From Shigella phage TB004: a DNA stretch of 64,000 bases. Position numbers and translations under genes: made by a program. The stretch lies in the sequence record MW822011. The stretch is one strand, 5' to 3'. The notes under the pieces were generated by a model. The model was not told the DNA's origin, ran no database searches, and worked only from the letters and a program-made list of their open reading frames with translations. Positions 6,405 to 61,724 of this stretch are shown one piece after another (positions within the stretch are counted from its first letter, which is position 1; each line of letters begins with the position of its first letter).

Positions 6405-7087
6405 TGTTTGATTTTATTATAGATTTTGAAACAATGGGAAGCGGTGAAAAGGCAGCTGTTATTGATTTGGCTGTTATTGCCTTTGACCCTAATCCAGAAG
6501 TCGTTGAAACATTCGATGAATTAGTTTCACGCGGCATTAAAATCAAATTTGATTTAAAAAGCCAAAAAGGACATCGTCTTTTTACTAAAAGCACTATTGA
6601 ATGGTGGAAGAACCAATCTCCTGAAGCTCGAAAAAATATTGCACCATCAGATGAAGATGTGAGCACTATCGATGGTATTGCAAAATTTAATGATTACATC
6701 AATGCACACAATATCGATCCTTGGAAATCTCAAGGTTGGTGCCGTGGAATGTCGTTTGATTTTCCAATTTTAGTCGATCTCATTCGTGATATTCAACGCC
6801 TTAATGGTGTATCTGAGAATGAGCTTGACACATTTAAGTTAGAACCATGTAAATTCTGGAATCAGCGTGATATTCGTACCAGAATTGAAGCACTTCTACT
6901 TGTTCGTGATATGACAACGTGTCCCCTTCCAAAGGGAACTTTAGATGGATTTGTTGCGCATAATTCTATTCATGACTGTGCGAAAGACATCCTGATGATG
7001 AAGTATGCTTTGCGATATGCTATGGGTCTTGAAGATGCTCCATCAGAGGAAGAGTGCGATCCTCTGTCTCTTCCAACAAAACGATAA
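6404..7087 (+). CDS. dexA: exonuclease A, DexA (227 aa)
   Basis: N-terminus MFDFIIDFETMG; length equals T4 DexA; DEDD-type exonuclease. Confidence 0.9.
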   Translation: MFDFIIDFETMGSGEKAAVIDLAVIAFDPNPEVVETFDELVSRGIKIKFDLKSQKGHRLFTKSTIEWWKNQSPEARKNIAPSDEDVSTIDGIAKFNDYINAHNIDPWKSQGWCRGMSFDFPILVDLIRDIQRLNGVSENELDTFKLEPCKFWNQRDIRTRIEALLLVRDMTTCPLPKGTLDGFVAHNSIHDCAKDILMMKYALRYAMGLEDAPSEEECDPLSLPTKR

Positions 7088-8770: not shown

Positions 8771-8802
8771 AGTTTAATTTTTTTTTTCATAAACTATATA
8801 CA

Positions 8803-8841
8803 TCAGTAGTTGATTATGGTACTATATCAATATCAACTACT
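8803..8841 (+). repeat. copy of the dispersed promoter/leader repeat, here flanked by an 11-bp inverted repeat
   Basis: CAGTAGTTGATtatggtactatatcaatATCAACTACTG. Confidence 0.5.
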
Positions 8842-8943
8842 GGTATAGAAAATAACTTGGAGAATAAAATGGAAAATTTGCCAAAGGTGCTGCTACTCTT
8901 CTGAAACGCATCGCTCCAATGTTCAATTAACGAGGAAATTGTA

Positions 8944-9768: not shown

Positions 9769-10029
9769 ATGAAATATATTAATCGTTCTATCGCAGCATT
9801 AGTATTAGCAGTGTCTTTAGCAGGATGTACTGATGCTGATAATGCAACCAAAGTTTTGTCTTCAAGTGGTTTTACTAATATTGAAATCACTGGATATAAT
9901 TGGTTCGGTTGCTCTGAAAATGATTTCCAGCATACTGGATTTCGTGCTATTGGACCTACCGGGCAGAAAGTAGAAGGAACAGTATGTTCTGGTCTATTCT
10001 TCAAGGATTCGACTATCCGTTTTAAATAA
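9769..10029 (+). CDS. putative lipoprotein (86 aa)
   Basis: signal peptide with lipobox LAGC (MKYINRSIAALVLAVSLAGCTD). Confidence 0.55.
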   Translation: MKYINRSIAALVLAVSLAGCTDADNATKVLSSSGFTNIEITGYNWFGCSENDFQHTGFRAIGPTGQKVEGTVCSGLFFKDSTIRFK

Positions 10030-10048
10030 AAGGCCTTCGGGCCTTTAG
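10028..10048 (+). terminator. rho-independent terminator (UUCG tetraloop hairpin)
   Basis: aaaggccttcgggccttt. Confidence 0.6.
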
Positions 10049-10071
10049 CTTTATGATTACCGGAGTATAAT
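10046..10071 (+). promoter_or_regulatory. possible MotA-dependent middle promoter for gene 39
   Basis: tagcttta (near MotA-box) 12 bp upstream of tataat. Confidence 0.3.
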
Positions 10072-14373: not shown

Positions 14374-15312
14374 ATGTACAATATTAAATGCCTGACCAAA
14401 AACGAACAAGCTGAAATTGTCAAACTGTATTCAAGCGGTAATTACACCCAACAGGAATTGGCTTATTGGAAAGATGTATCGGTTGATACAATCCGTCGTG
14501 TTTTGAAAAATGCTGAAGAAGCTAAACGTCCTAAAGTTACTATTAGCGGTGACATTACAGTTGAAGTTAAGAGCGATGTAGCTATTGCTCCAGTTGCTAA
14601 ATCTGACATTATTTGGAATGCATCTAAAAAATTCATTTCAATTACTGTTGACGGTGTAACTTATAACGCAACTCCTAATACTCATTCAAACTTCCAGGAA
14701 ATTCTTAATCTGCTTGTTGCAGATAAATTGGAAGAAGCAGCGCAAAAAATTAACGTTCGTCGCGCTGTTGAAAAATATATTTCTGGTGATGTTCGAATTG
14801 AAGGTGGAAGCTTGTTCTATCAAAATATTGAATTGCGGTCTGGTTTAGTTGATCGTATTCTCGATTCGATGGAAAAAGGTGAAAACTTTGAATTTTATTT
14901 TCCGTTCTTGGAAAATCTGTTGGAAAACCCGAGCCAAAAAGCGGTATCTCGACTCTTTGATTTCTTGGTAGCAAACGATATTGAAATTACAGAAGATGGT
15001 TACTTCTATGCTTGGAAAGTAGTTCGCAGTAATTACTTTGACTGCCATTCAAATACTTTTGATAACAGTCCTGGTAAAGTAGTTAAAATGCCACGTACTC
15101 GTGTGAATGACGATGATACACAAACTTGTTCTCGCGGTCTGCATGTGTGTTCTAAATCTTATATTCGTCACTTTGGCAGTTCAACCAGCCGAGTTGTAAA
15201 AGTTAAAGTACATCCGCGCGATGTAGTATCAATTCCGATTGATTACAACGATGCTAAAATGCGTACTTGCCAATACGAAGTAGTTGAAGACGTTACTGAA
15301 CAATTTAAATAA
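14374..15312 (+). CDS. rIIB: rIIB protein (312 aa)
   Basis: length and position match T4 rIIB. Confidence 0.9.
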   Translation: MYNIKCLTKNEQAEIVKLYSSGNYTQQELAYWKDVSVDTIRRVLKNAEEAKRPKVTISGDITVEVKSDVAIAPVAKSDIIWNASKKFISITVDGVTYNATPNTHSNFQEILNLLVADKLEEAAQKINVRRAVEKYISGDVRIEGGSLFYQNIELRSGLVDRILDSMEKGENFEFYFPFLENLLENPSQKAVSRLFDFLVANDIEITEDGYFYAWKVVRSNYFDCHSNTFDNSPGKVVKMPRTRVNDDDTQTCSRGLHVCSKSYIRHFGSSTSRVVKVKVHPRDVVSIPIDYNDAKMRTCQYEVVEDVTEQFK

Positions 15313-15326
15313 GGGCTTCGGCCCTT
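15311..15326 (+). terminator. UUCG hairpin after rIIB (weak or partial terminator)
   Basis: aagggcttcggccctt, no clear T-run. Confidence 0.35.
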
Positions 15327-15340
15327 AACTGAGGAAAATT

Positions 15341-15535: not shown

Positions 15536-15537
15536 AA

Positions 15538-15562
15538 TAAAGGGCTTCGGCCCTTTTGTTTT
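15538..15562 (+). terminator. rho-independent terminator
   Basis: aaagggcttcggcccttttgtttt. Confidence 0.6.
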
Positions 15563-15621
15563 AAGGGAAACTATGATTTATTACATGAATATCAGTGATT
15601 CCGACGTAAAAGGAAAGTTTA

Positions 15622-16179
15622 ATGCAGAAAACGAATCCGGGTTTACAGAGACTATTTCAGATTCCGACATTTACCCTATCGAACAATGACTTGACTAGTG
15701 AAATGAAGGTCAAAATTGCTGATACAGCAAGATACTCTTTAAAACAAAATCCTAATCAGGATAAAGCAGAAGTCATCGAAAGATGCCGTATCGCGGTATA
15801 CGCAGAGTTTTTTGTAGCAGATTGGCTAAGCGGGTATGTTAACAAAGGCCAAGAGGATGTTAATGACCCGTATACATACGCGTGGGATGTATTGGCGCAT
15901 CCAAGATACTGCGGGCTTCGTGTAGAAGTTAAGACACATCAAACTGACTCACGTTGGATTTCGGTAACAACCGGATGCAGCGGAGAGTATCCATACGGTT
16001 CTGGAATAAATCTAGGGCCCATTCTGAATCACCAAGTCGCTGACTGTATAATTATATTCAACACTAAAGAAATTCATCCAGGTGTCATCCAGTACACTCC
16101 GAAGTTCATTGGTGATAGAGAAGACCTTCGTAAGGTTGTAAGAAAAAGCAACTACAACGGATGGTATCTTTCCATTTAA
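15622..16179 (+). CDS. denB: endonuclease IV, DenB (185 aa)
   Basis: length and position match T4 denB (between rIIB and ndd). Confidence 0.85.
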   Translation: MQKTNPGLQRLFQIPTFTLSNNDLTSEMKVKIADTARYSLKQNPNQDKAEVIERCRIAVYAEFFVADWLSGYVNKGQEDVNDPYTYAWDVLAHPRYCGLRVEVKTHQTDSRWISVTTGCSGEYPYGSGINLGPILNHQVADCIIIFNTKEIHPGVIQYTPKFIGDREDLRKVVRKSNYNGWYLSI

Positions 16180-16196
16180 AAAATTTTCACAAAACA

Positions 16197-16250
16197 GTTT
16201 ACATACCACAAGGACTGTGGTACTATACAACTATCAGCTACGGAGGAGTA
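16197..16250 (+). promoter_or_regulatory. early promoter plus conserved leader (member of the dispersed repeat family)
   Basis: gtttac ... ctgtggtactatacaactatcagctacggagg. Confidence 0.5.
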
Positions 16251-16253
16251 AAA

Positions 16254-16517
16254 ATGAAATTTAAATTTTATTACGCTAAACATAAAATTACCGGTGAATT
16301 TATTGCATTTACGACTTCAACTACAGATGAAGGAGATATTTTTACTGCAGTATTTTTATCAAAATGGGAATCAGATCAACCTTACTTATCATCACGTGAA
16401 GATCTCCAACGATTAGTTAATGGAGAATATAATGATTCATGGTCATATTTAGTCCATGATTGTGTTAAAAAGGCAATAAAACAAAAACACTTGGAAATTG
16501 CTGAGATTGAACTATGA
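16254..16517 (+). CDS. hypothetical protein (87 aa)
   Basis: ORF track frame; ATG at 16254 after ggagg. Confidence 0.5.
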   Translation: MKFKFYYAKHKITGEFIAFTTSTTDEGDIFTAVFLSKWESDQPYLSSREDLQRLVNGEYNDSWSYLVHDCVKKAIKQKHLEIAEIEL

Positions 16518-16600
16518 GTTCATTATGGTGGTGTTTCGTTTGGTTAATTAGTATTCCATTAATTTGTTTAACATTTACTTTTGTGATGAGGTTATTATGA
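16514..16600 (+). CDS. micro-ORF, hydrophobic peptide (28 aa)
   Basis: MSSLWWCFVWLISIPLICLTFTFVMRLL; ATGA overlap with upstream stop. Confidence 0.3.
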   Translation: MSSLWWCFVWLISIPLICLTFTFVMRLL

Positions 16601-16695
16601 AAATTTTGAATTCTGTACTTATTGCTTGTGCATGGTGGGTTGTACAAGTTTCAGCAGTAGTAGTTGGTATTCACATTTATTACGAATATTTTTAA
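16597..16695 (+). CDS. micro-ORF, hydrophobic peptide (32 aa)
   Basis: MKILNSVLIACAWWVVQVSAVVVGIHIYYEYF; ATGA overlap. Confidence 0.3.
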   Translation: MKILNSVLIACAWWVVQVSAVVVGIHIYYEYF

Positions 16696-16702
16696 AAAAG
16701 TT

Positions 16703-16756
16703 GTTTACAAGACTGTTCCTCTGTGGTACTATACAACTATCAACTACGGAGGAACA
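16703..16756 (+). promoter_or_regulatory. early promoter plus conserved leader (member of the dispersed repeat family)
   Basis: aaaaagttgtttac ... ctgtggtactatacaactatcaactacggagg. Confidence 0.5.
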
Positions 16757-16759
16757 GAA

Positions 16760-16873
16760 ATGAAAAAGATTGTTAAAGCTATATGGAATGTAGTTATAAT
16801 ACTAGTAGTTTTGAGTATATTCACAATCGTTTTAATGATTGATGTATTAAACGCTTACTTTGGATTTATGTGA
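16760..16873 (+). CDS. small membrane peptide (37 aa)
   Basis: MKKIVKAIWNVVIILVVLSIFTIVLMIDVLNAYFGFM; ATG after ggagg. Confidence 0.4.
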   Translation: MKKIVKAIWNVVIILVVLSIFTIVLMIDVLNAYFGFM

Positions 16874-19713: not shown

Positions 19714-19731
19714 TAGGGAGAGCCTCGGCTC
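19714..19731 (+). terminator. short hairpin (possible terminator or RNA-processing element) preceding the motA promoter repeat
   Basis: agagcctcggctct. Confidence 0.3.
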
Positions 19732-19733
19732 TA

Positions 19734-19764
19734 CCAAAGCATACTGTGGTACTATACAACTATC
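19734..19764 (+). repeat. 31-bp promoter/leader repeat upstream of motA, identical to 36776-36806 inside gene 32
   Basis: ccaaagcatactgtggtactatacaactatc. Confidence 0.7.
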
Positions 19765-19796
19765 AACTACTGATACAGAATTACGGAGATTAGAAA

Positions 19797-20432
19797 ATGT
19801 CTAAAGTAACTTACATCATCAAAGCTTCTAACGATGTTCTGAATGAAAAAACTGCTGCGATTTTAATTACCATTGCTAAGAAAGATTTCATTACAGCTGC
19901 AGAAGTTCGTGAGGTGCATCCAGATTTAGGTAACGCAGTAGTTAATAGTAATATTGGGGTATTGATTAAAAAAGGCCTGGTGGAGAAATCTGGTGATGGA
20001 TTAATCATTACAGGTGAAGCTCAGGATATTATTTCAAATGCAGCAACTTTATACGCGCAGGAAAATACTCCGGAACTACTGAAAAAACGAGCAACTCGTA
20101 AAGCTCGCGAGATTACTTCTGATATGGAAGAAGATAAAGACTTTATGTTAAAACTTTTAGATGAAAATGGATTTGTTCTTAAAAAAGTTGAAACTTATCG
20201 TAGTAACTATCTCGCTATTTTAGAAAAACGCACTCACGGAATTCGTAATTTTGAAATTAATAACAATGGAAATATGCGAATTTTTGGATACAAAATGATG
20301 GAACATCATATTCAGAAATTTACTGACATCGGTATGTCATGCAAAATCGCTAAAAATGGTAATGTGTATCTTGACATTAAACGCTCGGCAGAAAACATTG
20401 AAGCAGTAATCACCGTAGCATCTGAACTGTGA
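19797..20432 (+). CDS. motA: middle-transcription activator MotA (211 aa)
   Basis: N-terminus MSKVTYIIKASNDVLNEKTAAILITIAKKDFITAAEVREVHPDLGNAVVNSNIGVLIKKG; length equals T4 MotA. Confidence 0.95.
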   Translation: MSKVTYIIKASNDVLNEKTAAILITIAKKDFITAAEVREVHPDLGNAVVNSNIGVLIKKGLVEKSGDGLIITGEAQDIISNAATLYAQENTPELLKKRATRKAREITSDMEEDKDFMLKLLDENGFVLKKVETYRSNYLAILEKRTHGIRNFEINNNGNMRIFGYKMMEHHIQKFTDIGMSCKIAKNGNVYLDIKRSAENIEAVITVASEL

Positions 20433-29653: not shown

Positions 29654-32600
29654 TTATTCAATCCATTCAAATTTAACAGATTTATTCACTGGGTCAGGAA
29701 TAATGCGAACATTACCAATTCGTAAGAAATCACGAATAGTAAGATTCCCCATTGTAGCATTATCAGATGGTAAAGCACCGATATCAGATGGTTGAGGAGG
29801 GTTACCTCCGTCAAATACCTGAACAAAACTTGACCAAGAGTTTTTGGTTTTCTGCCATGTACGTGTCCAGCGAGTGGTACGTGCTTCTGGAGTCGTTGGA
29901 TAAGTAATCCAATCTTGGTAAAGCGAATCAAGTGTGTTACCAAACTGAGTCAATGTACCAGGAGATTTAACTTCTTCGCCACGTTCTAAGTATGGAAGTC
30001 CAGTCACTTCATTAGTTTTTTCAACCATTTTAAAATAACCTGGGAACTGGTTATAAGTAGCTGAATCATTAATATCGATTGACCAGAATCCTACAGTATC
30101 AGATGTTGGCGCACGGGTATATAAGTCAGATGTTTTAGTGCCCTGAGAACGAATTCTCGAGTTAACAGTTAAACCACCTGAATTTATAGTAGCACCTTTG
30201 GCAATGATTAAGCTTTCACCAATCGTTACTTGACCGGACTGATTGTTAATAGCTAAAGGACGTAATCCATTAAATCCGCCAGTCTGATCACCTGATGTAG
30301 TAAGCATAAAATAGACATTAGCACCATCATTACGAATAAAGAATCCGTAATTACCACTAATAGCTCTAAAAGCATTCGATGATTTGCTGATGAATTCACC
30401 ATTAGCAGTAACTGAACGACCGAATGTTGCAACGCCATTAACATTCATCAAACCGGAAGCATTAATGTTTATTGGCATTACAGTACCATTAATGCTAAAC
30501 GCTATATTCCCGTCTTCTTTATTACGTTGAGAATAAAAGTGATAAGATGTATCATCACCAACTTCAAACACTGTCGAACGGGTCGTATCACTACCGCCGC
30601 CAAATTGGTTACCCCATACACGGATGCTCATTGACTGAACCGGGTTTGCACCGGATGCAGGACCTTTTTCGAAAACGATACGGGTCGGAGTTCCAGTATT
30701 AGAAATAGTTAATGTACTATTTGCCGAAACTGAACCACCAAACGTAGCAGTACTAGATGATACAAGAGGGGCACTCAGATTCGTTTGTTGGGTTAAGGTT
30801 AGTGAACCATTAACCGTCTGTGCAATGTCCCTACGAATGAACTGGGATGAATCTAGACCATCCAATAAATTTGTATCAGCAGCTTTTGCTTTTAATGGCA
30901 AATAATTTGCTAATACACGGTTTAATTCATATGGTGATACTGCATAACTATTTTTTTCGTATAATTCTAATGACTGGGTTGAACCAACGGTATCATTACC
31001 GACGAATGTAATTGAACCAGATGAAGTTTTAACAAATCCTCTTATCGCAGTAGTAGCTGCCCAAGTAGGTTCACTCTGCACAATCCATTTTAAATTTTTT
31101 GGAGATACAGCAGTATTTGCTGACGTTCCAGTTACAGTTTCAGACTGAGTTGCAACTTTAATAACACCTTCCTGTGCTTCAGTAGATTTAGTACCTAAAA
31201 GCTTTTTAGGAGTTATTAAAACATTATCTAATGTTCCTGCAGCAGCTTCAACTTGCGTAGCTACACGAAGTGTACCACGCTGTTTCTCATTTGCTTCAAG
31301 AATATTAAGGGTATAATGGTCCCAGAGAGTTCCTGATTCAACTAATCCAGATAGAGCAACAACAGAAGTACGATCAGTACTATTAAATCTAGTTTTAATT
31401 TTTAATGGTGTAGAGATACGAGTATCGTCGACGCCTGCGTCGAATTCAACTTGTGTAGCAATTTCAGCTATACCACTTAAACTTTCAGTTGCTCTACGGT
31501 CATTTAAAGTTTTAGGAGTGACTGCACGAGTATAATCAGTTCCTGTATTAACTTCACTTTGCGTAGCAATTTCAATTAAACCAATTCTTCCATCAGTTGA
31601 TGTCTTTTTATGTAACGTTTCTGGCGTTACAACAGCATTTGCCCATCCTTCTTGACTTTTTCCAGCAATTACTTCACTTTCAACTGCTAAAATTACTGCA
31701 CCTTGTTGTGTTGGAGTAGCTTTATACTGATCCAGAGCTTTAGGTGAAACAACTAAATTATTAGTGTTTTTATTATAAACGTTTGTACCATTTAATTCAC
31801 GACTAGAAGCTGGAGTAGCTCCTGCAGTAGATACAAATGTTACAATACCAGATAATGATTCAGAACCTTGTCGAGCTTGAAGCTTTTTAGGAGTGATGAT
31901 TGTAGTATCATCAGTACCTGCATTAGTTTCCTGTTGCGTAGCAATTTCAGCAACACCTCTACGAGTTTCTGTAGCAGTTCTTTCATTCAGCTTTTTAGGA
32001 GTGATGATAATATCATCAGCAAAAGAGAATGTGGTGTTCTGATTCACTTGAGCAGTAGTTGCTATTCTTGCGATACCTCTACGAGTTTCTGTAGCAGTAC
32101 GGTTAGCTAATGTTTCTGGAGTAATTGCTAATTCTTTTTGTGGAGAATTTTCTAAATCGACATTAGCTTGAGCTTGTGTAGCTAAAGCAATTACACCTAA
32201 TCTTGCTCTAGTAGAATCATTTAAAGAATCAACTCTTTCTACGGTTGGAACGTTTTGCTGTACAACCCAATATTTTCCATCAGAATCTTCTATGTAAGCA
32301 AGCTCCAAAACTGGAACATAATTAGTTTCACCGTTAAAAACTAATTCTTGAACAGTCACCCATTTAGTTTCAGGCGGATACTCTGAACGTTTTGGGAATT
32401 GCAGCAATTGAACTGAAGAAGCAATTTTATCTTCACCGGCAGCTTTGATTTTAACTGTTTGTCCTTTTCTCATGTAATTCATGGAAATTTTAACAGTATC
32501 ACCAACAGAAATATTAGTTGGAAGCTTAAGCTCAATTGTCTGAGCTGTTCCGTTATTCGCACCAAATACCATAACTTCTTCATTTGGACGAATATTAGAA

Positions 32601-35891: not shown

Positions 35892-36827
35892 ATGTTTAAA
35901 CGTAAATCTACTGCTGAACTCGCTGCACAAATGGCTAAACTGGCTGGAAATAAAGGTGGTTTTTCTTCTGAAGATAAAGGCGAGTGGAAACTGAAACTCG
36001 ACAATGCGGGTAACGGTCAAGCAGTAATTCGTTTTCTTCCGTCTAAAAATGATGAACAAGCACCATTCGCAATTCTTGTAAATCACGGTTTCAAGAAAAA
36101 TGGTAAATGGTATATTGAAACGTGTTCATCTACCCACGGTGATTACGATTCTTGCCCAGTATGTCAGTACATCAGTAAAAATGATTTGTATAACACTGAC
36201 AATAAAGAGTACGGTCTTGTTAAACGTAAAACTTCTTACTGGGCTAACATTCTTGTAGTAAAAGACCCAGCTGCTCCAGAAAATGAAGGTAAAGTATTTA
36301 AATACCGTTTCGGTAAGAAAATCTGGGATAAAATCAATGCAATGATTGCAGTTGATGTTGAAATGGGTGAAACTCCGGTTGATGTAACTTGTCCGTGGGA
36401 AGGTGCTAACTTTGTACTGAAAGTTAAACAAGTTTCTGGTTTTAGTAACTACGACGAATCTAAATTCCTGAATCAATCTGCGATTCCAAACATTGATGAT
36501 GAATCTTTCCAGAAAGAACTGTTTGAACAGATGGTTGACCTTTCTGAAATGACTTCTAAAGATAAATTCAAATCGTTTGAAGAATTGAGCACTAAGTTCA
36601 GTCAAGTTATGGGAACTGCTGCTATGGGTGGTGCCGCAGCGACAGCCGCTAAGAAAGCTGATAAAGTTGCTGATGATTTGGATGCATTTAATGTTGATGA
36701 CTTCAAAACAAAAACTGAAGATGATTTTATGAGCTCAAGCTCTGGCAGTTCATCTAGTGCTGATGACACGGACCACCAAAGCATACTGTGGTACTATACA
36801 ACTATCGGCAATACTGCTGATGATTAA
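35892..36827 (+). CDS. 32: ssDNA-binding protein gp32 (311 aa), variant C-terminus
   Basis: [52 protein letters not shown]; OB-fold core conserved; last 17 aa diverge from T4. Confidence 0.9.
36776..36806 (+). repeat. 31-bp promoter/leader repeat inside the 3' end of gene 32 (identical to 19734-19764)
   Basis: ccaaagcatactgtggtactatacaactatc. Confidence 0.7.
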
Positions 36828-36840
36828 AGAGGAAAATAAT

Positions 36841-37068
36841 ATGGCTAAAATTGATATTGATGTTGTTGATTTTGAATATATTGAAGAAATTATTCGTAAT
36901 CGTTATCCTGAACTCCGTATTACAAGCGCACTAAATGATCCTAATTGCAATGTTTCGGTTGTTATTGAAGGTCCTTTAAATCGTCTTAAACAATTTATGG
37001 TTAATGAATACTGTGATGGTATGGATGCTGAAGATGTAGAATTTTACACAGGATTTATTGAGCAGTAA
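36841..37068 (+). CDS. hypothetical protein (75 aa)
   Basis: ORF track frame; ATG at 36841 after gaggaaaa. Confidence 0.5.
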
Positions 37069-37112: not shown

Positions 37113-37493
37113 ATGTATACTGGTCGAAAGTATGAACTTGTTCCAAGACTTATTGATACATTTATTAATTATAGCCCACGATCCAATGCGTCAATAGTTA
37201 AAATTATTCGAGAAAATGGCGGATGGTTTGAAGTTAAAGAAGTTTCCGTCGCCAATGGATACAAAGCAGTAAAACACATTGAATGTGCAAATGGAAAGCA
37301 TTTTTATCTCAAAGATAGACTTTTAGAAATTTGCGAAGACGAATTTCATTGTTTTCGTGAGTATAAAGAACCGACTTCTGAAGAAGATGAAATCGAAGAC
37401 AAGGTTTCTGGCGTAACAAAAATTCACTGCATTGTTGACGAAAACAATGTAGATGAAATCATTGAACTTTTGCGAAAAACTTTCAAAAAGTAG
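37113..37493 (+). CDS. hypothetical protein (126 aa)
   Basis: ORF track; gaggaaaa SD. Confidence 0.5.
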   Translation: MYTGRKYELVPRLIDTFINYSPRSNASIVKIIRENGGWFEVKEVSVANGYKAVKHIECANGKHFYLKDRLLEICEDEFHCFREYKEPTSEEDEIEDKVSGVTKIHCIVDENNVDEIIELLRKTFKK

Positions 37494-37530
37494 TTTACAG
37501 AAGGGTAGTAGTGTGATACTATTACCCTAT
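37494..37530 (+). promoter_or_regulatory. early promoter with overlapping imperfect palindrome
   Basis: gtttac ... aGGGTAgTAGtgtgatactattaccct. Confidence 0.45.
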
Positions 37531-37547
37531 AAACTAAGGAGAATAAA

Positions 37548-37790
37548 ATGAGATTACAACGTCAGAGCATTAAAGATTCAGAAGTTAGAGGTAAATGGTA
37601 TTTTAATATCATCGGTAAAGACGCTGAACTTGTTGAAAAAGCTGAACGTCTTTTGCGTGATATGGGATGGGAAGATGAATGCGATGGATGCCCTCTTTAT
37701 GAAGATGGAGAAAGCGCAGGATTCTGGATTTACCATTCTGATGTTGATCAGTTTAAAGCTGATTGGAAAACTGTGAAAAAGTCTGTTTGA
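37548..37790 (+). CDS. hypothetical protein (80 aa)
   Basis: ORF track. Confidence 0.5.
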   Translation: MRLQRQSIKDSEVRGKWYFNIIGKDAELVEKAERLLRDMGWEDECDGCPLYEDGESAGFWIYHSDVDQFKADWKTVKKSV

Positions 37791-47411: not shown

Positions 47412-47465
47412 GTTTACAAGTCCCTCGTGTTGTGTTATAGTAATCTTACTGACATAACATGAGGA
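47412..47465 (+). promoter_or_regulatory. 54-bp early promoter / imperfect palindrome cassette upstream of alc (copy A)
   Basis: gtttacaagtccctcgtgttgtgttatagtaatcttactgacataacatgagga; near-identical to 61671-61724. Confidence 0.6.
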
Positions 47466-54884: not shown

Positions 54885-55250
54885 ATGAACTACATCAACT
54901 TTGAACGTAAATATGTTTCTAACGGTATTGCAGGTTCTATTGATACTATCTGCCTTTGGAAACATCAAAATGGATCAGTATGCGAAATTGAACAGTATAT
55001 GACTCCTAACTACGTTTATATGCGATTTGAAAATGGCATCACGGTTTCAATCACGAAAGAAGGTTCTTCTTTTAAAATCGCATTAGATGATGATTTTCGT
55101 CAACGTGATTTAGGGACTCATCCTTGCTGGAATGGCGTCAATCGTAAGCTTCTGGTTAAAACTTGGATTCGTCATATTCTGAGTAACAGAGCTAAACCTG
55201 AGCATCTTGAAGCGATCTTTGATGTAGTTCTTAACGAATTTGATATTTAA
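54885..55250 (+). CDS. hypothetical protein (121 aa)
   Basis: ORF track frame 54873..55250 (TTG); ATG at 54885 after ggagaataaa. Confidence 0.5.
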   Translation: MNYINFERKYVSNGIAGSIDTICLWKHQNGSVCEIEQYMTPNYVYMRFENGITVSITKEGSSFKIALDDDFRQRDLGTHPCWNGVNRKLLVKTWIRHILSNRAKPEHLEAIFDVVLNEFDI

Positions 55251-55257
55251 AATAAAA

Positions 55258-55276
55258 TAGGGGCTTCGGCCCCTTA
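55258..55276 (+). terminator. UUCG hairpin (terminator-like)
   Basis: aggggcttcggcccctt. Confidence 0.4.
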
Positions 55277-55290
55277 CTGAGGAAAATATT

Positions 55291-59018: not shown

Positions 59019-59203
59019 AAGCTTACTTAGAAACAATTGTCGTGGCTCAAAAAGAAGGTGGAGATGTTTCTACTTCTGTATCACAAATCGTTCTTGAATT
59101 TGTAGATGCATATGCTTATAATAAATTCACAGAAACATTTGATGCCTATGAAAAAGGTCCAAAGTTTGAAATATATCGTACTCTCTTACCATTAGATTAT
59201 TAA
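59015..59203 (+). CDS. hypothetical protein (62 aa)
   Basis: ORF track; ATGA overlap with ligase. Confidence 0.45.
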   Translation: MKAYLETIVVAQKEGGDVSTSVSQIVLEFVDAYAYNKFTETFDAYEKGPKFEIYRTLLPLDY

Positions 59204-59222
59204 AGGCCTTCGGGCCTTTAAT
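59202..59222 (+). terminator. rho-independent terminator
   Basis: aaaggccttcgggcctttaatttt. Confidence 0.6.
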
Positions 59223-59224
59223 TT

Positions 59225-59232
59225 TATAAATA
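59225..59232 (+). promoter_or_regulatory. late promoter TATAAATA upstream of alt
   Basis: ttttataaatagaat about 30 nt upstream of alt ATG. Confidence 0.5.
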
Positions 59233-59261
59233 GAATAAGAATAAACACTAGAGAGGATATG

Positions 59262-61310
59262 ATGGAACTCATTACAGAATTATTTGACGAAGATACTACT
59301 CTTCCGATTACAAACTTAAATCCAAAGAAGAAAATACCGCAAATTTTTTCAGTTCATGTTGATGACGCAATTGAACAACCAGGCTTTCGTTTATGTACCT
59401 ATACATCTGGAGGTGATACTAACCGTGATTTAAAGATGGGCGATAAAATGATGCATATTGTTCCTTTTACATTAACTGCTAAAGGTTCAATTGCTAAATT
59501 AAAAGGTCTCGGTCCAAGCCCAATTAATTACATCAATTCAGTTTTTACTGTTGCGATGCAGACGATGCGGCAGTATAAAATTGATGCCTGCATGCTTCGT
59601 ATTCTTAAGTCTAAAACTGCTGGTCAAGCTCGACAAATTCAAGTTATTGCTGATAGACTTATCCGTAGTCGTTCAGGTGGCAGATACGTCCTTCTTAAGG
59701 AACTCTGGGATTATGATAAAAAGTATGCATATATTCTTATACATCGCAAAAATGTATCACTAGAAGACATTCCAGGAGTTCCGGAAATTAGTACCGAGCT
59801 CTTTACTAAAGTTGAATCGAAAGTCGGCGATGTTTATATCAATAAAGATACTGGAGCTCAAGTAACTAAAAATGAGGCAATTGCAGCATCTATCGCACAA
59901 GAAAATGATAAACGTTCTGACCAAGCTGTTATTGTTAAAGTTAAAATTTCCCGTAGAGCAATTGCGCAAAGTCAATCATTAGAATCTTCTAGATTTGAAA
60001 CACCAATGTTTCAAAAATTTGAGGCTTCAGCAGCAGAATTAAATAAACCCGCCGACGCGCCTTTAATTTCTGATGCTAACGAATTAACTGTTATTTCTAC
60101 TTCAGGATTTGCATTAGAGAATGCTCTTAATAGTGTTACAGCTGGAATGGCATTCAGAGAAGCTTCTATAATTCCTGAAGATAAAGAATCTGACGTTAAT
60201 GCAGAAATAAAAAATAAAGCTTTAGAAAAATTACGAAAAGAATCTATTACTTCAATAAAAACTTTAGAAACTATTGCTTCTATCGTCGATGATACTTTAG
60301 AAAAATATAAAGGTGCTTGGTTTGAAAGAAATATTAACAGACATTCGCATTTAAACCAAGATGCTGCAAATGAGTTAGTACAAAATTCTTGGAATGCAAT
60401 AAAAACAAAGATTATTCGAAGAGAATTACGTGGATATGCTCTTACCGCTGGATGGTCATTACATCCTATAGTCGAAAATAAAGATTCATCTAAATACACA
60501 CCAGCGCAAAAACGCGGAATTCGTGAATATGTAGGTTCAGGATATGTAGACATGAATAATGCTCTTTTGGGATTATATAATCCAGATGAGCGTACAAGTA
60601 TTTTAACAGCACCTGAAATAGAACAAGCCATTGATAATTTAGATTCAGCCTTTAAAAATGGTGAACGATTACCAAAAGGTATTACTTTGTATCGTTCACA
60701 ACGAATGTTACCTTCAATATATGAAGCACTGGTAAAAAATCGAGTTTTTTATTTTAGAAATTTTGTATCAACATCATTATATCCAAACATTTTTGGTACT
60801 TGGATGACTGATTCAGCTGTGGGTGTTTTACCAGATGAAAAGCGTCTAAGCATTTCTGTCGATAAAAATGATGAAGGGCTTGTTAATTCTAGCGATAATT
60901 TAGTTGGAATTGGATGGGTTATTACTGGAGCTGATAAAGTCAATGTTGTTTTACCCGGTGGAAGTTTAGCACCTTCAAATGAAATGGAAGTCATTTTGCC
61001 ACGTGGATTAATGGTCAAAGTCAATAAAATAACTGATGCATCTTACAACGATGGAACAGTTAGAACTAACAACAAGCTTATTCAAGCTGAAGTTATGACC
61101 ACAGAAGAACTCACCGAATCGGTAATTTATGACGGTGACCGTTTAATGGAAACTGGTGAATTGGTTACAATGACAGGTGATATAGAAGATAGAGTTGACT
61201 TTGCATCGTTTGTTTCATCAAATGTTAAACAGAAAGCAGAATCATCTCTTGGAATTATTGCGTCTTGCATAGATATTGCAAACATGCCTTACAAGTTCGT
61301 TCAAGGATAA
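59262..61310 (+). CDS. alt: Alt, packaged ADP-ribosyltransferase (682 aa)
   Basis: MELITELFDEDTTLPITNLNPKKKIPQIF; length equals T4 Alt; ART core in the C-terminal half. Confidence 0.9.
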   Translation: MELITELFDEDTTLPITNLNPKKKIPQIFSVHVDDAIEQPGFRLCTYTSGGDTNRDLKMGDKMMHIVPFTLTAKGSIAKLKGLGPSPINYINSVFTVAMQTMRQYKIDACMLRILKSKTAGQARQIQVIADRLIRSRSGGRYVLLKELWDYDKKYAYILIHRKNVSLEDIPGVPEISTELFTKVESKVGDVYINKDTGAQVTKNEAIAASIAQENDKRSDQAVIVKVKISRRAIAQSQSLESSRFETPMFQKFEASAAELNKPADAPLISDANELTVISTSGFALENALNSVTAGMAFREASIIPEDKESDVNAEIKNKALEKLRKESITSIKTLETIASIVDDTLEKYKGAWFERNINRHSHLNQDAANELVQNSWNAIKTKIIRRELRGYALTAGWSLHPIVENKDSSKYTPAQKRGIREYVGSGYVDMNNALLGLYNPDERTSILTAPEIEQAIDNLDSAFKNGERLPKGITLYRSQRMLPSIYEALVKNRVFYFRNFVSTSLYPNIFGTWMTDSAVGVLPDEKRLSISVDKNDEGLVNSSDNLVGIGWVITGADKVNVVLPGGSLAPSNEMEVILPRGLMVKVNKITDASYNDGTVRTNNKLIQAEVMTTEELTESVIYDGDRLMETGELVTMTGDIEDRVDFASFVSSNVKQKAESSLGIIASCIDIANMPYKFVQG

Positions 61311-61313
61311 ATC

Positions 61314-61699
61314 ATGGAACTTATTACAGAATTATTTGACGGCGCTTCGGCGCCGGTTGTTAACTTAAATCCTAAGCATAAAATACCACAAATTTTTGCT
61401 ATTCAAGCCGGCGAAGAAAGCGTGCTTCCTGGATTTAGATTTTGTACATACACCTCTGGCGGTGATACGAATAAAACGTTAAGCCGGGCGATAAAATGAT
61501 GCATATCGTAATGATAGGTGTTAATGAGAAACTATCATTAGTTAAGCTTAAAAACTTGGGTGGAAATCCAATTGGTGTCATTAATGCTGTTTTTGATACT
61601 GCTCTTCAAACAATGAAACAGTATAAAATCGACGCATGCCTATTACGCGTACTAAAAAGTTCAAAATGTAGTTTACAAGTCCCTCGTGTTGTGTTATAG
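61314..61699 (+). pseudogene. frameshifted tandem duplicate of the alt 5' region (Alt N-terminal fragment in two ORFs)
   Basis: MELITELFDGASAPVVNLNPKHKIPQIF ... FCTYTSGGDTN then frameshift, then MMHIV ... TALQTMKQYKIDACLLRVLKS; parallels Alt residues 1-120. Confidence 0.6.
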
Positions 61700-61724
61700 T
61701 AGTCTTACTGACATAACATGAGGA
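61671..61724 (+). promoter_or_regulatory. 54-bp early promoter / imperfect palindrome cassette (copy B)
   Basis: gtttacaagtccctcgtgttgtgttatagtagtcttactgacataacatgagga; one mismatch versus 47412-47465. Confidence 0.6.

Follow-up and report, generated by a model that had tools for sequence, protein, structure and literature searches.

A short sequence recurs at widely separated positions in the 64,000-nucleotide stretch of the Shigella phage TB004 genome analysed here (MW822011; the whole stretch is called the window below), and the question is what this repeat represents and whether its copies have exchanged parts with one another. The original prediction had taken it for a dispersed family of early promoters and leaders resembling PeSLs (promoter-early stem-loops). 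Our analysis points to a single sub-family of T4-type early promoters, present in five copies together with their mRNA leaders and corresponding to the published PeSL cassettes, and we put the probability of this reading at about 0.82. The feature is already known, as T4 early promoters and as PeSLs published at the denB-ndd locus, and its novelty is low; the main value of the present work is that five regulatory sites of this genome can be annotated correctly.

Five early-promoter copies and their T4 counterparts

The window is a Tequatrovirus (T4-like) genome, and a 2-kb piece around the repeat, covering denB, the ndd.x genes and ndd, is 80-96% identical to its matches in ~500 Tequatrovirus genomes. 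The early-gene direction is that of the + strand here, reverse-complemented with respect to the T4 map, so that window position x corresponds approximately to T4 183277 - x. A motif search of the window returned the 27-mer CTGTGGTACTATACAACTATCRRCTAC with no mismatch at 16215-16241, 16721-16747 and 19744-19770, and with two mismatches at 36786-36812. These four matches compare with none in 100 dinucleotide-preserving shuffles, which establishes the predicted repeat as real. A repeat search grouped the same copies (families D1 and D6) and added a diverged copy at 8817-8850 that is 71-85% identical to the others. The copies and the features around them are as follows, each copy being given with its orthologous site in T4.

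8796-8871, + strand: cef copy (T4 site near 6606, between motB and cef), with a degenerate -35 ATATAC (8796-8801), TGn, -10 TACTAT (8820-8825) and predicted +1 near 8832; its leader has the SD GGAG (8859-8862) and an ATG (8869) that opens an 11-codon mini-ORF.
16172-16256, + strand: P1 (T4 site 167062), a full early promoter and leader 3' of denB, with an A/T-rich UP region, -35 GTTTAC (16197-16202), TG (16218-16219), -10 TACTAT (16221-16226), predicted +1 near 16233, SD GGAGG (16242-16246) and ATG (16254).
16678-16762, + strand: P2 (T4 site 166783, upstream of ndd.4), a full early promoter and ndd.4 leader, with -35 GTTTAC (16703-16708), -10 TACTAT (16727-16732), predicted +1 near 16739, SD GGAGG (16748-16752) and ATG (16760).
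19716-19799, + strand: motA copy, truncated (T4 site 163649, upstream of motA), with a motA.1 terminator remnant (the 5' arm and loop with a portion of the 3' arm, 19716-19732), deletion junction 19732/19733, spacer remnant ACCAAAGCATACTG, TGn, -10 TACTAT (19750-19755), predicted +1 near 19762, SD GGAG (19785-19788) and the motA ATG (19797).
35892-36827, + strand: gene 32 (ssDNA-binding protein), the last 17 codons of which are read from promoter spacer, core and leader.
36775-36843, + strand: frd.3 copy, truncated, in the gene 32 ORF (T4 site 146851, between gene 32 and frd.3), with junction 36774/36775, a motA-type spacer remnant, -10 TACTAT (36792-36797), predicted +1 near 36804, SD GAGG (36829-36832) and the frd.3 ATG (36841).
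37493-37550, + strand: sister promoter with a B-type core, TGATACTATTACCCTAT, the core type of the ndd.4 promoter in T4, B1.1, RB51 and PST.

The ORF downstream of P1 (16254-16517) has 87 codons and is PST ORF268-like. All five sites are orthologous to T4 sites 5' of early genes, and three of them, the orthologues of P1, P2 and the motA copy, are annotated in the relative OL960581 as 'similar to phage T4 early promoter GTTTAC(N14)gtggTAttaT', so the early-promoter reading is upheld. The T4 early consensus is GTTTAC-N14-gtggTAttaT (Miller et al. 2003, as quoted in OL960581), and T4 early promoters have been described as combining UP, -35, TGn and -10 elements with additional consensus regions (Hinton 2010, PMC2988021). 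The T4 GenBank and RefSeq records themselves store no promoter features. With the exception of cef, the orthologous T4 sites carry GTTTAC, an A/T-rich upstream region and TGGTACTAT; this last element, TGn plus the GT-rich stretch before the -10, is present in all five copies of the window.

The -35 region differs among the copies. GTTTAC followed after 18 nt by TAnnnT is found at 16197 and 16703, ATATAC takes its place at 8796, and the motA and frd.3 copies read CGGCTC and ACGGAC there, i.e. they have no -35. The A/T-rich UP element is likewise present at P1, P2 and cef and deleted at motA and frd.3. Of the predicted layout, GTTTAC placed 18 nt upstream of the -10 therefore holds for the two 16-kb copies and fails for the other three, and GGAGG-ATG follows the motif at the same two copies only, the SD being GGAG at motA and cef and GAGG at frd.3.

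Set beside T4 early promoters in general, the window copies share their positions (before the ndd.6 region, ndd.4, motA, frd.3 and cef) and their orientation towards early genes, and P1 and P2 share in addition the UP element, -35 GTTTAC, TGn and -10 hexamer. They differ in forming a TACTAT sub-family with a conserved ACAACTATC initial transcribed region, in the absence of UP and -35 from two copies and in the ATATAC at the -35 of one. MotA-dependent middle promoters were considered as another identity and rejected: no MotA box (a/t)(a/t)(a/t)TGCTT(t/c)A, which would be centred at -30, was found, and TGCTT lies upstream of the -10 in none of the five copies. As the support for transcription consists of orthology and third-party annotation, we infer the +1 positions, together with transcription by host RNA polymerase and promoter strength, from the sequence. 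T4 early promoters are of the host sigma-70 type, and host RNA polymerase would start ~7 nt past TACTAT, at the A of CTATC, and the leader would then provide an SD, GGAG(G) or GAGG, 5-8 nt upstream of the ATG.

The shared core and the modules around it

Twenty promoter-like sites of the window were aligned on the -10 hexamer and compared segment by segment. With the first base of the hexamer as reference, identity from -3 to +27 is 76% within the family versus 45% among the other early promoters of the window. In the UP/-35 region, the spacer and the distal leader, the family is no closer than unrelated early promoters are. Conservation past the -10 into the leader, as had been claimed, is thus confirmed, but it is limited to the core. 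Since only the core is family-specific, the repeat amounts to the core TGGTACTATACAACTATC and a few bases set between variable modules. An SD and an ATG follow every copy (5/5), 33-49 nt from the first base of the -10. The cassette is modular: its core can be preceded, 5' to 3', by a terminator stem-loop, by UP and -35 and by a spacer, and followed by a leader and then the SD-ATG. We rejected an RNA element in the leader, since the five leaders folded alone were no more stable than shuffles (z -1.2 to +1.1) and no Rfam match was found in the whole window.

The exact 18-mer core is present 3-8 times per complete T4-like genome (three times in T4, four in the window, five and eight in two IMG/VR genomes). 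A search with this 18-mer gave 27 loci from IMG/VR T4-like contigs, which we pooled with those of T4, B1.1, PST, RB3, RB51, ime09, SP21535, CrRp10, bov9_1 and teqskov. Across these 16 genomes, 49 distinct copies display eight spacer types and seven leader types in 17 combinations. Three unrelated spacers are combined with the frd.3 leader, for example, namely AAGCATAAAGCTTTA (T4 type), AACCAAAGCATACTG (motA type) and ATCCCTGTTCTTCCA, and all three are present at other loci too. Moreover, the four-gamete set is complete, the spacers AACCAAAGC.. and ATCCCTGTT.. each being combined with both leaders, AACTACTGATAC and GGCAATACTGCT. Recurrent mutation is no explanation for this set, in which blocks of 15 nt differ as a whole; on the sequence comparison, exchange between copies must have occurred, with crossovers inside the shared core. 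Module shuffling, another element of the original prediction, is supported by this spacer-by-leader table, and crossovers in an 18-nt core across many T-even genomes give comparative support to the PeSL shuffling model.

The core itself also switches at one locus. At the ndd.4 promoter, the window and one IMG/VR genome share an ACAA core, whereas T4, B1.1, RB51 and PST have the TACC core of the promoter at 37493. The change takes the form of a patch of adjacent differences between flanks that are 93-100% identical. In T4, motA and frd.3 share an identical 34-nt UP/-35 block.

These patterns bear on three other accounts of the repeat. Convergence on an optimal promoter sequence by selection alone, with no exchange between loci, could draw on the consensus that T4 early promoters share class-wide well past the -35 and -10 (PMC2988021), and on several unrelated early promoters of the window that have a CTAT-like motif near the predicted start. 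It would not, however, produce identical 15-nt spacers at different loci, given that spacers have no class-wide consensus, nor unrelated spacers at one locus in different phages, a complete four-gamete set or the 34-nt block common to motA and frd.3 in T4, and we consider it highly improbable. The core TGGTACTATACAACTATC(A)ACTAC might instead be an operator through which a phage or host factor co-regulates motA, frd.3, ndd.x and cef, for instance in early shut-off. It does contain three spaced ACTAY pentamers and is far more conserved than its flanks, and the shut-off mechanism of T4 early promoters is stated to be unknown (Hinton 2010, PMC2988021). Yet the ndd.4 promoter swaps ACAA and TACC cores freely among close relatives, the genes served have no known common function, and there is no evidence of a binding factor, all of which makes an operator improbable. 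As for a small MITE-like element with terminal inverted repeats that transposes by itself, what recommends it are the 11-15-bp inverted repeats around the core of the cef and ndd.4 copies. The arms of these repeats, though, have a different sequence in each of the two copies and are missing at P1, motA and frd.3, and the stems are explained as the stem-loop part of a PeSL with RB49-like placement. With all copies at T4-orthologous positions, no target-site duplications and no transposase, such an element is barely credible.

The further claim that the copies are recombination hotspots stood only in part. Exchange at the core is in its favour; larger mosaic and indel ends lie outside the core, so that a raised recombination rate at the core is not demonstrated. 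Mosaic boundaries fall inside ORFs, ~125 nt into frd.3 and at ~16290 in ORF268. The ends of the ORF268/269 indels coincide with AAATGAAA and GAG(A)ATAAAATG repeats, which belong to translation-start regions outside the promoter core. Flanking gene content does differ across T-even genomes, with 0, 1 or 2 extra ORFs between P1 and P2: both ORF269 and ORF268 are present in PST and ime09, ORF269 alone in RB3, ORF268 alone in the window, B1.1 and RB51, and an 8-codon remnant in T4. This T4 remnant stems from a deletion between two AAATGAAA repeats. The window ORF at 16254-16517 is a divergent allele, 55-75% identical per 30-nt block to RB51 and B1.1 over ~16290-16500.

Two further candidates for exchange were set aside. 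Discordance between the gene 32 and frd.3 flanks was not used as evidence of a breakpoint at the frd.3 promoter, since the switch lies ~125 nt inside frd.3. The P1 leader CTACGGAGGAGTAAAAATG might be read as a conversion from P2, but the two have only a 10-mer in common, and small deletions in a common leader explain it equally well.

Within the window, exact identity between copies extends over only 22-32 nt (22 nt for P1 and P2, 27 nt for P2 and motA, 32 nt for motA and frd.3), which counts against the cassette-exchange reading. According to Singer et al. (1982), T4 recombination reportedly becomes efficient at roughly 50 bp, and the tracts of the window lie below this length. The common core, in relatives together with UP/-35, would offer short homology to the T4 recombination system, and over evolution spacers and leaders would be reshuffled between dispersed loci, as in the PeSL mechanism that Arbiol 2010 and Comeau 2014 put forward; this pathway is one that we infer.

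Stem-loops and the comparison with published PeSLs

PeSLs were defined in RB49 and phi1, where the crossovers of mini-circles were mapped experimentally to the interval from the -10 to the ATG (Arbiol et al. 2010, PMC2839356). They were extended to T4 and PST with the promoter consensus TTTACW-N17-TAYWAT, the worked example being the difference after denB between ndd.4/.5 and ORF268/269 (Comeau, Arbiol & Krisch 2014, PMC4122927). The PeSL-like reading of the window agrees with these T4/PST PeSLs, which were illustrated at the denB-ndd locus. In both, a sigma-70-like promoter with an A/T-rich region and an SD-ATG forms a composite with a stem-loop, which in the window is seen at P2 and cef; the composites are repeated in hyperplastic early regions, beside small ORFs differing between close relatives, and P1 and P2 fit the T4/PST consensus. 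In contrast to the published elements, P1, motA and frd.3 lack their own stem-loop in the window, and the P1-P2 indels, ending at SD-ATG repeats, need no promoter-by-promoter crossover.

At P2, positions 16713-16727 pair with 16743-16757 in a 15-bp stem that surrounds the -10 and in which the spacer is base-paired to the SD; its read-through RNA has a folding energy of -24.1 kcal/mol with a z of -4.6, and the T4 orthologue a z of -3.7. At the cef copy, the arms 8799-8821 and 8825-8847 flank the -10 and include a perfect core of 11 bp, so the inverted repeat described at 8.8 kb is real, and the read-through RNA reaches -20.6 kcal/mol (z -4.9). No such hairpin was found in the read-through RNA of P1 (z -0.6), motA or frd.3; the motA copy has a terminator remnant only and the frd.3 copy none. 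In RB49 the usual place of the PeSL stem is over the -10 or in the interval separating it from the -35 (Arbiol et al. 2010, PMC2839356). As the stems of P2 and cef also lie over the -10, these two copies fit the full PeSL definition. A terminator scan detected a terminator-like stem-loop with a T-run directly upstream of none of the five copies. In T4, full terminators stand upstream of motA and frd.3, and in OL960581 a rho-independent terminator is annotated directly 5' of the motA promoter.

Hairpins of this kind are not confined to the repeat family. Across the window, 8 of 19 early-type promoters have hairpins with z <= -3.7 (-10 at 2156, 7118, 8223, 8820, 16727, 37517, 47436 and 61695), compared with 1.7% of 300 random 67-nt windows (P ~4e-10). 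In five of the eight, P2 included, the SD is paired upstream of the predicted start. This arrangement suggests, as modelled from the folds, that at SD-paired promoters only locally started transcripts would be well translated, the SD of transcripts coming from upstream being occluded. Translational control by a promoter within a hairpin is established for T4 e, soc, 49 and I-TevI (Uzan & Miller 2010, PMC3014915). P2 and four other early promoters of the window resemble these cases in pairing the SD with bases upstream of the predicted start; they differ in that the known cases are late promoters, whereas those of the window are early and their effect is a predicted one.

A second promoter/leader repeat was also noticed, at 47412-47465 and 61671-61724. 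Its two copies, 14 kb apart, are 98% identical over 54 nt, from GTTTAC through the SD, and each lies inside a strong hairpin (z -5.8 and -4.7, respectively).

The truncated motA and frd.3 copies

The two copies with neither UP nor -35 were compared with full-length relatives. Relative to T4, the motA copy is 41 bp short: UP and -35 are gone, as are the T-run of the terminator and the remainder of its 3' arm (CCC). Relative to bov9_1, 105 bp are absent at the frd.3 copy, a loss that takes in the stop and final 8 codons of gene 32 and, besides UP and -35, the terminator. The copy predicted inside gene 32 does lie within that ORF, but only through this deletion, the new gene 32 stop (36825-36827) falling between the predicted +1 of frd.3 and its SD. 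In T4 and bov9_1 the gp32 C-terminus reads ...ADDTDLDDLLNDL; where the long form ends ...ADDTD-LDDLLNDL, the window has the 17 promoter-encoded residues in place of LDDLLNDL. The Dda-binding helix of gp32 spans residues 248-270 and its acidic tail residues 273-301; the window gp32 retains the helix, and the residues lost are in the acidic tail. A minority-lineage gp32 without the LDDLLNDL tip would be a natural test of the role of the extreme acidic tail.

Other genomes carry the same kind of allele. The short gene 32 allele is found in 9 of ~495 records and the short motA allele in 13 of ~430, and both are present in six phages (GEP001, CrRp10, phiC600P9, B1.1, Sfk20 and SP21535). Junctions one base shorter than those of the window occur at both loci in B1.1 and at the gene 32 junction, the one examined, in CrRp10; in these two phages gp32 is annotated as a 392-aa in-frame fusion with Frd.3. 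SP21535 has the gene 32 left endpoint of the window and a different right-hand spacer. In ZN18 it is a third locus that carries a similar deletion, in this case with GCT microhomology. The short gene 32 alleles are associated with three or more frd.3 haplotypes, a distribution that recombination inside frd.3 could have produced. A single microhomology rule for the deletions was rejected: CC fits the B1.1-type motA junction and GCT the third locus of ZN18, and the gene 32 junctions fit neither.

Could the truncations be sequencing or assembly artefacts, all five copies being full promoters in reality? The missing segments, a hairpin and A/T homopolymer runs, are of a kind that would favour this explanation, as do the rarity of the short alleles, their co-occurrence in the same six phages and the odd gp32-Frd.3 fusion of B1.1 and CrRp10. 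Against it, the same junctions come from independent laboratories in France, Poland, China and elsewhere, and unique coding sequence is deleted as well, which repeat collapse does not explain. Lineages also differ cleanly in their junctions (ACC/ACCAAAGC, ACC/CCAAAGC and ACC/TCTCTGTTC), and ZN18 carries a comparable deletion at another locus. An artefact is therefore unlikely. Because independent laboratories report the same junctions and unique coding sequence has been removed, we judge from the sequences compared that the motA and gene 32/frd.3 deletions are probably real.

The motA and frd.3 copies would have been 'decapitated' by these deletions, leaving a TGn/-10 promoter together with upstream read-through. 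It is conceivable, although we hold it doubtful, that this decapitation of PeSLs is recurrent or directed, running from the terminator 3' arm or gene 32 to the base after GTTTACA. In keeping with such a process, the same ~2% of Tequatrovirus genomes have short alleles at both loci, which lie 17 kb from each other, the gene 32 left endpoint is constant while the right-hand spacers vary, and the one-base junction difference is common to both loci within a genome. If true, it would mean ongoing gene conversion between loci, or a nuclease acting on the cassettes, and would make the gp32 C-terminus a case of promoter DNA recruited to code protein. Modest leads come from the truncated alleles, the gp32 tail encoded by promoter DNA and the frequency of hairpins that straddle promoters.

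Several other repeats were seen in the window. Terminator-type hairpins with a GGSCTTCGGSCC stem and a UUCG loop lie at 10026-10059, 15302-15339, 15536-15569, 55250-55287 and 59199-59232 (families D7 and D14), those at 15302-15339 and 15536-15569 having the variant GGGCTTCGGCCC. In the tail-fibre gene region, a 68-nt direct repeat occurs four times at 31149-32125 with 65-72% identity (D2). Finally, a 31-nt repeat at 59259-59289 and 61311-61341 (D18), 94% identical and beginning ATGATGGAACT and ATCATGGAACT, respectively, may mark the starts of two paralogous small ORFs.
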